Part shown: piece by piece, positions 14,638 to 63,036 of the stretch
Numbering within the stretch: the stretch's first letter is position 1
How the letters are laid out: each line of letters opens with the position of its first letter
Assembly (NCBI GenBank): GCA_965222225.1
Contig: CBDCTK010000002.1
Span: 1,088,001-1,152,000 of the forward strand
Length of the DNA: 64,000 nucleotides
Direction of reading: 5' to 3'
Source: Candidatus Poribacteria bacterium
GTDB taxonomy: Bacteria; Poribacteria; WGA-4E; JAJDTR01
Notes under the pieces: model-generated
Database searches by the model: none
The model's input: only the letters and a program-made list of their open reading frames with translations
What the model was told of the DNA's origin: nothing
Program-made: the position numbers and the translations under genes

Positions 14638-14902
14638 ATACCATTTCGCTTGAATAATAGTGCATATGATATCTGAATTATATCGCTCACTTTCTCCGTA
14701 GGCGGGAATCAAGCGAACGAATAGATCAAGTGGCCGACTAGGATCAAACGAGTGAATAACGAGTGCGATAGTAAATCCCGTGCGATAGGGATCCCCTTGC
14801 CCCGCCTATTTTGCGCGGAGATAAGGCTTTTTACTCCGCCCCACACAAGTTTCTTTACTTAATCCGCGTAATCAATACACTTGAATTTTAGAGAAATGGT
14901 AT
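14638..14902. mobile_element. MITE family A, copy 1 (IS630-like ends)
   Basis: TIRs ATACCATTTC / GAAATGGTAT; no ORF; colinear second copy at 56722-56911. Confidence 0.7.
14707..14793 (+). repeat. Nested 35-bp GATC-ended units (two complete, one 5' half)
   Basis: 36-bp unit 14742-14777 inside a 34-bp unit (14724-14741 + 14778-14793), preceded by half unit AATCAAGCGAACGAATA. Confidence 0.8.
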
Positions 14903-30291: not shown

Positions 30292-30589
30292 AAAGCCCCA
30301 GCGGGGATCAAACGAACGATCAACTGAGTGGATAACGAAGGCGATAGAAGATCTCATAGTGAGTGCGATAGCAATCCCATAGGTATGTAGCAGCCAACAA
30401 TGAAAACATGAAAACACTTTCTACAAATGACCAAAAATGGCTTTGCCACCGATTATTCAAACAGGTTCTTAATGACCGCAAAACACGCGAAGAAATTTTC
30501 CAAAGCTACCTATAAACCTTTCGCCCCTCTGGGGGCTTTATTACATTGCTGCTTTTGCGGCTATACACCTATCGCGCCGCTGGCGCTTT
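30292..30589. repeat. REP-like repeat cluster: one copy plus two inverted copies
   Basis: AAAGCCCCAGCGGG[insert]CCATAGGTATGTAGC versus CTATAAACCTTTCGCCCCTCTGGGGGCTTT and GCTATACACCTATCGCGCCGCTGGCGCTTT. Confidence 0.6.
30306..30376 (+). repeat. Two nested 35/36-bp GATC-ended units
   Basis: Inner 36-bp unit at 30318-30353; outer 35-bp unit at 30306-30317 + 30354-30376. Confidence 0.85.
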
Positions 30590-56721: not shown

Positions 56722-56911
56722 TGTATATGATGTCTGAATTATATCGTTCACTTTCTCCGTAGGCGGAGATCAACCGGGTGGATAGCGAGGGCGATAGGGA
56801 TCGCGTTGCCCCTCCGACTTTGCGTGGATACAAGGCTTCTTACTCCGCTCCACGCAAGTTTCTTTACTTAATCCACGTAATCAATGCACTTGCATTTTAG
56901 AGAAATGGTAT
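56722..56911. mobile_element. MITE family A, copy 2 (left end missing)
   Basis: Colinear with 14661-14902 including right TIR GAAATGGTAT. Confidence 0.75.
56768..56802 (+). repeat. 35-bp GATC-ended unit
   Basis: GATCAACCGGGTGGATAGCGAGGGCGATAGGGATC. Confidence 0.85.
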
Positions 56912-57714
56912 AAGCACCTATTGTCCTGGATACGCTAGCGATCTGACTACGAACTGTTCAGCGCTCACAACCACGAGTCAATTAAGACGTACGTCAGATT
57001 GTAGCAATTGAATCCATCGGATGTCGGGAGCTATGTATTCGAAGGAGAAGCGTCGAACCATGAAGTTGTGAGCGATCGTCTACGTAAACACAATCAATTG
57101 GAATCATTCGGTGGGATTTACGAGAACTGGATAATCAAATCAGATTGGAGGGTGTAACTTTAAACTACGTCAAAGACTGGCAGGGAGGGGAGAAAAATCT
57201 TGTCATTTTTCAAGCAGCTCGAAAATATGCTGCTGTTGTCACATATCTAGTCTTAAACCTAACAAACAAAACTTATTTGGGCAGAAAGAATGCGATTTCA
57301 ATATACTCTCCTACTTCGTCTCAAAATCTCTCATTTTTTGAGCAACAAGGATGCCGTATCCCACATTATAGATTTTCGTTTTCCATTCCGGCGATGCTTC
57401 TAGGTACGGCTTAATGACCCTACCCTTGTCTCCCCACAAGACATCATCAATAATAACGATAGAGTTCGCTCTGAAAACCTTCTCACAAGTCTTGAACTTT
57501 TTCCAAATGCGATCTGCATCATTCACGGAATCAAATAAGGCGAGATGGATTGTGTCCAAGACATCGGCGTCGACCATTTTCCTTAAATTATCAATCGCGT
57601 CACCTTCAACATAGTTAATATACCCAAGTTGCTACCTAATTGAATTGAAAATCCCCGGGGTTTTCGTTAGAGTTGAGGAGTTCACTATTACCTCAATACC
57701 CTAAAGGAGAACCC

Positions 57715-58589
57715 ATGGACATTCAAATTGTAACTGTTTTCTGTTTGTGTGACGCTCTCTTAAAAGCATTCAACCATCAACCAGACCCACAATCTCGGAT
57801 GTCTGATGCCGAAGTTATGACGACTGCACTGGTTGCAACACTCTTTTTCGGTGCCAACTTCCAAACCGCTCGTGACTTTCTCCAAACTCACGGCTATATT
57901 CCAAACATGCTCTCAAAGAGCCGGTTCAATCGACGGCTTCACCGAATTAAACCCATGTTCATCACACTGTTCGAAATCTTAGGCGAAAGTTTTGTACAAC
58001 TCAACAAGCAGAAACGCTATGCCGTAGATACTATACCAATTGTTGTTTGTGACAATTTCCGCATTCGTCGCTCAAAAATCTACACCAATGAAACATTTCG
58101 AGGCTATCAGTCGTCCAAACGTCGGTATTTCTACGGCTTAAAGATTCATCTACTGGTTACCGCTCAACGACAGCCGGTTGAATTCTTTTTGACCCCGGGT
58201 AACACCGGTGATGTTGAAGGCTTACAATACTTTGACTTCGACTTACCACCGGGCAGCCGTGTCTATGGAGACAAAGCGTACAATAACTACGATTAACTGA
58301 GCGAATAGCGAAGGCGATAGAAATTCCTATAGAAGACAGTATTGCCGAAGTTGGGGTGGAGTTGAAACCGATACGCAAGAAGAATTCAAAGCGGCAATAT
58401 CCACCATGGGAAGCCTATCTAGTCAATTATTATCGCAAGTCTGTTGAGACGACTGCGAGCTTGATTGAGAGGTTGTTGCCGCCTTCAATTCATGCGGTGA
58501 CACCACAGGGATTTGAACTGAAAGTCGTCTTGTTTGTAGTGGCTACCAGTATCAACCAATATGAACCCACTCAGAATTCACCCATATAG
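57715..58589 (+). pseudogene. IS982 transposase disrupted by a 35-bp insertion
   Basis: MSDAEVMT, SRFNRRL, VDT, YFYGLKIH, GDKAY and RKSVET motifs; single lesion at 58291-58325. Confidence 0.9.
58291..58325 (+). repeat. 35-bp unit inserted in the IS982 transposase
   Basis: GATTAACTGAGCGAATAGCGAAGGCGATAGAAATT. Confidence 0.88.
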
Positions 58590-59409
58590 CCAATACCCGA
58601 TGAATAGGTAGCAACTTGGGTTAATATATTCGTTATAGTCACGGCATAGAGATTGATAGATGCGGATATTTTCTTTGCAAATCTCAAATTTATAGAACAT
58701 TCCACGGCTATTCAGCGTTGACGCGATTGTCAAGGTACTTTCGGTTCCTTCATTGGCATCCCGAATACAACCAGTTTCGATGACAGTTGGGTGCGATGTT
58801 GTTTTGAACACCTCAGCAGGCATTTCCTGATGATTGGCTTGTGCGCCCTCCGATAATCCCGCAATCCAAGTTTGTACAAAACCAAGTGTTGCGCTTTCCA
58901 AATCTTATTGACCAATCGGCTTTCTTTAATCGACATTGTAAAGGTTCCCTAAAACCGAAATACGTAAAAGCCTGAAAAGTATCCGGGACATTTGCAATAG
59001 CCGCACTCGGATGATAATCTACGAACTGGCCATTGCAAAACGTCATCAGGCTCAAAAAACTTCACGGGAATTGAACCGCAATTTATCTCTTACAATTACT
59101 ACATAATACCAATACGTCATCTCTGACTGTCAAGACAAAATTGGGGCGTAGTAGCACGCTTCTTCGGTCTTGATTCCATTACTACCTCTCGTCATAACTC
59201 AGACAGCCTAACTCGTAGGTGTTAATTGTTCTCCGGATTCTTACACCAGTCTCAAGTAACCTCGGACACTGATGCCTAATCTCCTTCCACGTGGCGGCGG
59301 AGAAAGCCGCCGTCCATCTAACTTGGTTTACACTTCCTTGCGCGACTTGTCGCTGACTCGCGAGGTTATTAACATACATTTGCTGAAACTATGAAAAATG
59401 GCTGAAAAT

Positions 59410-62756: not shown

Positions 62757-63036
62757 CATAAGGATCAAGTTAAGCGTTTTAGGGCACAATTCACTTGGTT
62801 TCAATGTCTTAAACTGTTAGTCTCCATGCTAACTTGGAGAGGGAATTCTACCAATTCATTGATCTGCCCGCCTAAGAAGATCTTTCACAGCGCCCGTTTT
62901 CGTAGGGGCGGGGATCAAGCGACTGAACAAGGAGCGCGATAGAGATCCTTTCCCCGCTCAATAGGGACTGAGTAAGGGGTTTGTGGCGGAAAACCCGACC
63001 AAATACTAAACAAACTCTCTTAAGTTGATCCTTATG
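62757..63036. mobile_element. MITE family B, 280 bp, with 20-bp target-site duplication
   Basis: 18-bp TIRs CATAAGGATCAAGTTAAG / CTTAAGTTGATCCTTATG (1 mismatch); flanking GGGATTAAGCTTGATACACT at 62737-62756 and 63037-63056. Confidence 0.88.
62913..62947 (+). repeat. 35-bp GATC-ended unit inside a GTAG-type REP-like hairpin
   Basis: CGTAGGGGCGGG[GATCAAGCGACTGAACAAGGAGCGCGATAGAGATC]CTTTCCCCGCTC. Confidence 0.85.

Follow-up and report, generated by a model that had tools for sequence, protein, structure and literature searches.

A 35-38 nt hairpin repeat inserted into an IS982-family transposase gene of Candidatus Poribacteria belongs to a family of very small repeats with a conserved structure and a narrow lineage

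Repeats shorter than 40 nt are common in bacterial genomes; to our knowledge, clean proof of movement is rare for repeats of this size, and the mechanism is known for few of them. The stretch of DNA considered here, referred to as the window, comprises 64,000 nt of a Candidatus Poribacteria genome (GenBank assembly GCA_965222225.1, contig CBDCTK010000002.1, positions 1,088,001 to 1,152,000, forward strand). In it, a member of a family of 35-38 nt hairpin repeats, called the unit, interrupts the transposase gene of an IS982-family insertion sequence (IS). On the best reading, the closest described parallels are the small dispersed repeats (SDRs) of cyanobacteria and the repetitive extragenic palindromes (REPs) with their compound forms, REPINs. 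SDR1-8, which Elhai et al. reportedly described in 2008 from Nostoc punctiforme and its relatives, are said to be 21-27 nt long and confined to the Nostocaceae, and an RNA route is said to have been suggested for them. The units resemble SDRs in being short, dispersed and noncoding, in having a structure with compensatory changes, in nesting within themselves and within other repeats, in their narrow lineage and in having no enzyme assigned to them. They differ in length (35-38 nt against 21-27 nt), in their host, which is Candidatus Poribacteria instead of Nostocaceae, and in that their orientation follows replication-strand composition, with no suitable reverse transcriptase (RT) found. The likeness to SDR1-8 is one of description. 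A cyanobacterial link, or one to the highly iterated palindrome HIP1, was considered and rejected: the genome gives no Photo_RC match, and the HIP1 sequence GCGATCGC is not enriched (117 occurrences, about 86 expected).

REP and REPIN elements with their REP-associated tyrosine transposases (RAYTs) are described by Bertels and Rainey (2011, PMC3116915) as short, mostly intergenic, hairpin-forming, present in hundreds of copies and under selection for structure. The units share these properties. Classical GTAG-headed REPs and RAYT-like genes are found in the unit-bearing genome as well, and the units insert into the loops of these REPs and so form a layer above them. A REP carries a GTAG/CTAC tetranucleotide head beside an imperfect palindrome, whereas the units have no GTAG head, are mostly single or co-oriented instead of inverted doublets and have no co-distributed RAYT. 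The loops of REPs are reportedly also the targets of IS1397 and ISKpn1, as Tobes and Pareja are said to have noted in 2006. Those elements are like the units in choosing the loop or centre of the hairpins of other repeats, but each is a complete insertion sequence that encodes a transposase, has inverted ends and duplicates its target, none of which applies to the units. The units do not fit the description of miniature inverted-repeat transposable elements, which have terminal inverted repeats and a target-site duplication and descend from an autonomous IS: no target duplication is seen, and the ends of the unit, GATCAA and ATCC, are not inverted repeats of each other beyond GAT(C). Palindrome-associated transposable elements, the miniatures of the IS200/IS605 type, insert 3' of an invariant target of 4-5 nt and carry a hairpin at either end; the units have left flanks that share only G or GA, and one hairpin each. 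A search of full-text articles, supplements excluded, returned no description of such repeats in Poribacteria.

The junction in the IS982 transposase gene can be read exactly. From the ATG at 57715 the frame runs to GDKAYNNY and continues with GAT and at once with a TAA stop at 58294-58296, which comes from a C>T change private to this copy of the unit; the frame from 58326 begins PIEDSIAEVGVELKPIRKKN and ends at the stop codon 58587-58589. Both frames, and the 35 bp at 58291-58325 (GATTAACTGAGCGAATAGCGAAGGCGATAGAAATT) between them, are as the initial annotation gave them. A DNA search that took in 60 relatives found intact copies of the IS with about 87-90% identity in three congeners, 966 bp long against 1000 bp here, four in genome G003, six (and some pieces) in G006 and one in G007, and the alignment to them contains one 35-column block that is present in the window only. 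Since the N-terminal and C-terminal halves of the transposase align to an intact G003 copy without gaps or stops, the insert is the sole frame-breaking lesion of the open reading frame (ORF), as had been proposed. A protein-seeded search fetched 80 related loci, of which six had no colinear pair under the criteria and were left out; in 74/74 evaluable loci one half follows the other colinearly, the joint being free of indels, and Pro at the joint position is found in none of them. In 29/29 Poribacteria copies with at least 73% protein identity to the N-terminal half, the junction reads AA(C/T) TAT GA(G/A) ATA GA(A/G), which encodes NYEIE. A contig of run X16, about 90% similar, has nothing that corresponds to 58290-58328 and joins the two sides by TGAG.

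The letters of the window across the junction are AACTAC-GA-TTAACTGAGCGAATAGCGAAGGCGATAGAAATTCC-T-ATAGAAGAC. They are explained most economically by 58293-58327 inserted after GA, with the next base changed from G to T; equivalent wordings are that about 36 nt (TTAAC...ATTCCT) replace one G, or that 38 nt (58291-58328) replace GAG. The GA at 58291-58292 can be assigned to either the target or the unit, and both this left GA and the right ATAG are common to the IS target and the unit. The idea of a precise insertion stands in part: a unit was gained, and the alignment to intact copies bears out the absence of any duplication of target bases, but the event removed GAG or the last G of it, and the ends lie 2-3 nt away from the coordinates first given. 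The TAC-CCT junction predicted for other copies of the IS is not the one they have; intact copies read TAT-GAG-ATA, a different junction in intact copies being what the initial annotation had named as its refutation. Because dozens of intact IS copies in related genomes fix the ancestral sequence, the direction of the event is gain and not loss, and the locus is a real insertion of a member of the repeat family into ordinary coding DNA. Translational bypass of the 35 nt was considered by eye and rejected, the GAT...GAT and TAC...TAT take-off and landing pairs ending in the wrong frame.

The family to which the unit belongs has the consensus GATCAA-NN-GA-NN-GRATA-NN-GA-NN-GCGATAG-NNATCC. A nhmmer search of the genome gives 817 matches at E<=1e-3 and 957 near-full-length matches in all, the copy in the IS being recovered with an E-value of 3.4e-12, and blastn-short with the unit core gives 155 matches at E<=0.01. 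Most counts below are based on 768 near-full-length units, which comprise 423 different 30-mers and 227 stem signatures. Exact copies of the core pattern number 489 in this genome and 280-761 in each of nine congeners, and the reversed control pattern has 0. Conservation has a sharp 5' edge at the G of GATCAA and fades at the 3' end after ...GATAG-NNATC-CC, at about position 37-38, so that the unit as first delimited was 2-3 nt short at its 3' end. Inside the ORF proxies, which cover 81% of the contig, lie 91/767 units, and orientation relative to neighbouring genes shows no bias (228 same, 203 opposite), a distribution of the selfish type. The suggestion that the unit is more than a part of a REP agrees with the 532/948 matches (E<=0.01) that are isolated, with no other unit within 150 nt; neighbours within that distance are mostly direct (205 pairs, against 40 inverted). 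The window itself holds five units, all on the + strand. Two of them sit in the loops of GTAG-headed REP hairpins, and that at 30318 is nested between GA and ATAG of a host unit, the start of which lies about 12 nt upstream and the end near 30380.

The structure of the unit is supported by covariation among 621 distinct units. The Watson-Crick fractions at pairs 7-23, 8-22, 11-19 and 12-18 are 0.71, 0.91, 0.93 and 0.83, compared with 0.30-0.54 for shuffled columns and 0.12-0.41 when the partners are slid by one column, and each covarying pair has 3-4 canonical or wobble pair types that are present in at least 20 units. The two stems, 7-8/22-23 and 11-12/18-19, have invariant G.A/A.G between them and are capped by the GRATA loop; the short helices are set apart by invariant purine-rich internal loops, AA/GC and tandem G.A/A.G. 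Since G.T pairs are frequent (24% and 14% at two stem pairs) and A.C pairs rare (1-2%), the hairpin is kept on one strand, the strand as written. RNAfold adds pairing of ATC (2-4) with GAT (26-28); these bases never vary and so give no evidence from covariation, and the end pairs 1-35 to 4-32, with Watson-Crick fractions at shuffled values, give none either. The same pairing is kept in units of other genomes. Rfam has no family at the unit, its three matches elsewhere in the 221 nt searched being at chance level.

Movement of the family is visible in paralogous sites with and without a unit. At least one paralogous site lacking the unit exists for 167/768 units; 131 filled/empty pairs were evaluated, 45 of them of high quality (flanks at least 90% identical), and in these the net length is 33 nt in 5, 34 nt in 20, 35 nt in 11 and 36 nt in 9. 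In some pairs 35 nt are cleanly inserted between G and C, in others 1-4 target bases are missing, and no target duplication is seen in clean pairs. The landing places include the loops of several types of GTAG-headed REP, the GRATA loop of other units (GA/ATAG, the slash marking the point of entry, as in units 87 and 122) and the GCG/CG/ATAG part of other units. Within 18 nt after position 31, ATAG occurs in 261/768 units and in 38/768 control windows; it peaks at positions 38-40 and 44, which correspond to the two nested sites, and directly follows 20% of the units. The target in the IS, GA-G-ATAG, resembles the GRATAG loop, the commonest landing place of the units. Transfer of a restriction fragment from GATC to GATC was rejected as an explanation, the target sites not being GATC.

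Three loci of the genome outside the window (numbered G000:C2) show what the units do to coding and defence sequences. At G000:C2:2921264-2921373 (L172), a 2419-aa ORF accommodates 72 additional nt in frame, a unit and 45 nt; the flanks are 99% identical in G005, which lacks the extra nucleotides, and the target natively held GATCAAG, which is common to target and unit. A search of the genome for a donor of the 81-nt insert matched only the unit part, the 45 nt matching nothing. At G000:C2:2965617-2965653 (L173), a 639-aa ORF has a unit in place of a variable linker of about 135 nt found in three congeners, in which the replaced stretch is already unit-like and holds GGATAGCGAG and GGGATC. The third locus, G000:C2:2704260-2707980, is a CRISPR-Cas locus (clustered regularly interspaced short palindromic repeats, CRISPR), in which ORFs resembling cas2 and cas4 accompany an array whose 37-nt repeat begins GTAGCAACCATTGCC and whose spacers measure about 36-38 nt. 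Congeners have regular arrays of 14-49 repeats; here eight intact repeats are left, in two groups, and between these groups the array consists of units attached to pieces of the repeat directly after ...GATGAAAAG, with 24 nhmmer unit matches (E<=1) in 4.4 kb around C2:2705500-2707980. The units interrupt genes, lengthen proteins by 12-24 codons and have left a CRISPR array in disorder, which bears on the annotation of sponge-symbiont genomes and on the assessment of their defence systems.

The strand on which a unit lies is anticorrelated with local GC skew. Plus-strand units number 274 in surroundings of negative skew and 137 in those of positive skew, minus-strand units 124 and 232, respectively (Fisher odds ratio 0.27, p=1e-18, a per-unit value that overstates the significance because the units are clustered). 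Over 50 bins of 100 kb, the correlation of unit strand is -0.51 (rho, p=1.6e-4) with GC skew and -0.06 with gene-strand bias. The family is also narrowly restricted. More than 100 exact cores are found only in 14/176 genomes of the phylum, belonging to two Candidatus Poribacteria genera: g1, the genus of the present genome (10/10 genomes, 280-761 cores), and g4, a genus of another family (4/4, 111-126 cores). Five further genomes have 1-13 exact cores and the remaining 157/176 have 0. Among the matches listed in a scan of all species' genomes (at least 80), every unit locus is a Poribacteria record. Such a restriction makes a gene search by phyletic profile feasible.

The units form a family of very small repeats, structured and restricted in lineage, whose members have moved in recent evolutionary time, and the hairpin is among the smallest repeats known, yet able to move. 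The family constrains the mechanism through its one-strand hairpin, its replication-strand orientation, the absence of duplication and the targeting of its own loop. The reading that we favour, with a probability of roughly 55%, is a very small non-autonomous mobile hairpin that is copied at the DNA level in step with replication and would need a trans-acting factor. The intermediate might be a single-stranded copy of the hairpin strand, or else a nascent strand that switches onto a unit. Joining would proceed through overlaps of 1-4 nt, with no target duplication and a loss of 0-4 target bases, and the new copy would tend to lie on the C-rich (lagging-sequence) strand, in the same orientation as the units beside it. 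The putative factor may read the invariant unpaired bases. At the present locus, a copy of the unit was written into CTAT-GA-G-ATAG of the transposase gene, joined after GA and before ATAG and replacing G; the shifted frame meets TAA at once, and the transposase is cut off and disabled. A more far-reaching form of the same idea is tentative and, taken as a whole, doubtful: that the units are a new class of the smallest mobile DNA known, a hairpin of about 36 nt, restricted to two genera of uncultivated sponge symbionts, that enters the nascent lagging strand at replication forks as single-stranded DNA, homes to its own loops and their look-alikes, erodes REPs, IS982 and CRISPR, and depends on a protein that is neither a RAYT nor an RT.

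Several observations weigh against a mobile hairpin of this kind. A single unit folds with -5.0 kcal/mol (z=-1.0), and 27/200 shuffled sequences fold as well; since the fold energy is no better than that of shuffles, it is the covariation that supports the structure. The idea that units land in hairpin loops came from the REP loops, the loop of the unit, the CRISPR repeat and CTAT-GAG-ATAG; in minimum-energy folds of 40 distinct empty sites it holds for 11/40, against 5-14 at shifted positions, and so gains no support. Many filled/empty pairs copy a few composite repeats (40 distinct 16-mers at 58 sites), and independent events are far fewer than pairs. The junctions are uneven, with unit ends that vary by 1-3 nt and 0-4 target bases missing, which fits an enzyme-free template switch as well as a mobile element, and both cases in coding genes, the 2419-aa and 639-aa ORFs, are complex, with extra unmatched sequence in one and a loss of about 135 nt in the other. 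The GC skew of the assembly is weak and patchy, and the strand bias may come from biased loss or survival instead of biased insertion. Finally, no mobilising gene was found; the four Y1 subfamilies, the sole RVT_1 match and the resident CRISPR repeat type all fail to track the units (Table 1).

An enzyme-free origin, by template switching in replication or repair or by short-patch gene conversion between hairpin-prone look-alikes, is unlikely, even though much of the same evidence suits it. The overlaps at the junctions, GA and ATAG in the IS and GATCAAG in the 2419-aa ORF, the unit-like sequences at the converted site in relatives of the 639-aa ORF (GGATAGCGAG and GGGATC), the loss of at most 4 target bases with variable ends, the tracking of GC skew by the unit strand and the failure of distribution tests to find a mobilising gene would all be expected. 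What such a process would not readily give is a sharp 5' edge at the G of GATCAA, a net length as narrow as that of the 45 high-quality pairs (33-36 nt), a donor flank that in most pairs is not brought along, or the 45 extra nt of the 2419-aa ORF, which have no donor in the genome. The presence of more than 100 copies in only 14/176 genomes points to a lineage-specific factor instead of a general error of replication, and stem covariation together with invariant unpaired bases implies selection on a structure that is recognised.

That the units are an unusual REP moved on single-stranded hairpins by a Y1 (HUH) REP-associated tyrosine transposase is somewhat less probable again. Hairpins on one strand and a replication-strand bias are typical of the substrates of HUH enzymes such as those of IS608 and the RAYTs, and in this respect the units fit. 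The genome has five Y1_Tnp matches; units lie within 1.5 kb of four of these five genes and flank two of them on both sides in inverted orientation, and orthologues of one Y1 gene in four congeners have a unit within about 50 bp. However, a comparison across 61 genomes shows that four Y1 subfamilies do not follow the units, which are present in 10/10 g1 and 4/4 g4 genomes, and these subfamilies, like the sole RT, are thereby excluded by distribution. Outside the genus, a unit was found near Y1 no. 1 at 1/20 loci (in G012, about 660 bp off), with a model built from the present genome that may miss diverged units. A RAYT-like Y1 gene with an in-frame TAG, at G000:C2:3088750-3089550, is flanked by inverted REPs of a different, GTAG-headed type (CTGTAGGAGCGATCTCC...GTCGCGA), and one further copy of this REP beside the pseudogene carries a unit in its loop; the locus has the classical arrangement of REPs and RAYT and is separate from the unit family, although units sit inside its REPs. 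The units themselves have no GTAG head, have neighbours that are direct in 205 cases and inverted in 40, share only G or GA in their left flanks and have their hairpin on the C-rich strand, opposite to IS608-type elements.

An RNA route, in which the unit is transcribed, folded, reverse-transcribed and integrated, is very improbable. The G.U-type asymmetry of the wobble pairs would agree with it, and contigs from metatranscriptome libraries cover the stretch, which is no proof of transcription. Against it, orientation ignores gene direction (228 versus 203; rho=-0.06) and follows GC skew, there is no Rfam family at the unit, and the sole RVT_1 match in the genome, which is 94.9% complete, is a 670-aa AbiA-type defence RT (G000:C2:4499563-4501572, L195; PADLOC AbiA, 254.8 bits) with relatives in 5/9 g1 and 1/4 g4 genomes. 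The route proposed for SDRs is therefore argued against for the units, because their orientation tracks strand composition and no suitable RT is present. The copies of the AbiA RT in several congeners carry stop codons.

It is hardly credible that the integrase of CRISPR adaptation (Cas1-Cas2-Cas4) captures units and inserts them like spacers into off-target sites that resemble hairpins: the length of the unit (35-38 nt) equals that of the spacers of the resident array (about 36-38 nt) and the array at C2:2705500-2707980 is riddled with units, but the repeat type was found in 0/4 g4 genomes, was not found in 4/9 congeners with hundreds of units and is present in the unit-free G041, G047 and G053, no duplication of repeat length lies beside any unit, and the capture of spacers would not yield a fixed sequence.

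Table 1. Features of the window (positions as counted in the window) and occurrence of candidate mobilising systems in groups of genomes
Feature	Position	Strand	Remarks
IS982-family insertion sequence	57623..58620	+	998 bp with the unit, about 963-966 bp without the unit
IS left terminal inverted repeat	57622..57638	+	17 nt, 100% complementary to 58605-58621; first base overlaps A/T of the duplication
IS right terminal inverted repeat	58605..58621	+	partner of 57622-57638, perfect over 17 nt
IS target-site duplication, left copy	57615..57622	.	TTAATATA, 8 bp
IS target-site duplication, right copy	58621..58628	.	TTAATATA, 8 bp
Transposase, N-terminal part	57715..58290	+	192 codons, ending GDKAYNNY; ORF, IS982 profile match
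Transposase, C-terminal part	58326..58589	+	87 codons and stop; out of frame with N-terminal part; profile match
Inserted repeat unit	58291..58328	+	GATTAACTGAGCGAATAGCGAAGGCGATAGAAATTCCT; net gain 35 nt; replaces GAG of intact copies
Methyltransferase (class-I), 3' part	57311..57621	-	G009 orthologue 200 aa
Methyltransferase, 5' part	58629..58936	-	further 1-nt deletion near 58815/58816
Further units in the window	14742-14781, 30318-30356, 56768-56804, 62912-62951	+	nhmmer family
Y1 no. 1			g1 9/9, g4 2/4, g6 13/16, g3 9/19
Y1 no. 2			g1 2/9, g4 0/4
Y1 no. 3			g1 6/9, widespread elsewhere; not found in three congeners with 280-622 units
Y1 no. 4			g1 2/9, g4 1/4
AbiA-type defence RT			g1 5/9, g4 1/4
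Resident CRISPR repeat type			g1 5/9, g4 0/4; also in unit-free G041, G047, G053

The element that carries the unit has the features of its family, namely a transposase with profile and DDE_Tnp_1_3 matches, perfect inverted ends of about 17 bp and a target-site duplication of 8 bp, its size without the unit being about 965 bp; it departs from the IS982 norm in being broken by the repeat. The N-terminal half matches positions 1-162 of NF033520, the NCBIfam profile for IS982 transposases, with its residues 30-190 (120.8 bits), and the C-terminal half matches positions 167-242 of 243 from its residue 3 (35.3 bits), so that the four residues at the joint fill profile positions 163-166 exactly. Each half is below the cut-off of 130 bits, while the simple sum of the two is 156 bits. 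The Pfam family DDE_Tnp_1_3 matches the N-terminal half with 45.1 bits against a cut-off of 27. GDKAY is presumably the site of a catalytic Asp, an assignment taken from the D-x-(G/A)-(Y/F) motif of IS4/IS5-like DDE transposases, and the truncated protein would, if the same motif knowledge applies, lose the C-terminal part with the catalytic Glu.

The perfect inverted ends and the target-site duplication noted by the initial annotation agree with the comparison to relatives, in that TTAATATA lies on both sides of the IS and occurs once in the uninterrupted methyltransferase orthologues of G009 and G006. The proposed nesting of three layers, with the unit in the IS and the IS in a methyltransferase gene, is likewise upheld by the comparisons with these orthologues and with other IS copies. 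The intact 200-aa orthologue in G009 scores above the cut-offs of Methyltransf_24 (27.8 bits against 26.3) and Methyltransf_3 (22.9 bits against 22), and a Pfam search with the two halves from the window alone gives no match. Relative to G009 and G006, a 1-nt deletion at 58815-58816 puts the 5' part of the methyltransferase into two frames.

The insertion of the unit is younger than that of the IS but is fixed in the sampled populations, and 'recent' is a relative term. The recent activity that had been deduced from an otherwise intact IS cannot be dated: contigs from another three studies show the same arrangement of IS and unit and differ from the window at 3-8 places, the methyltransferase has decayed further, and the unit is one C>T change (position 4) away from the 13 copies of its nearest subfamily. 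The same IS copy without the unit was not found in the contigs of four runs, a result of little weight, as contigs drop rare variants. In run X17 (record 19), a 1091-nt metatranscriptome contig matches from the left end of the IS (57622) onward, preceded by 152 loose letters that are unlike the left flank in the window, yet has the same right flank; the IS may lie at another location as well or have been rearranged, or the contig may be chimeric. The copy in the window is the one full-length copy of this IS in the 5.70-Mb genome. An 86-bp fragment at G000:C2:4823543-4823628, with 86% identity to the left end of the IS, may be the remnant of an older copy, and a unit sits in a REP loop about 300 bp downstream of it.

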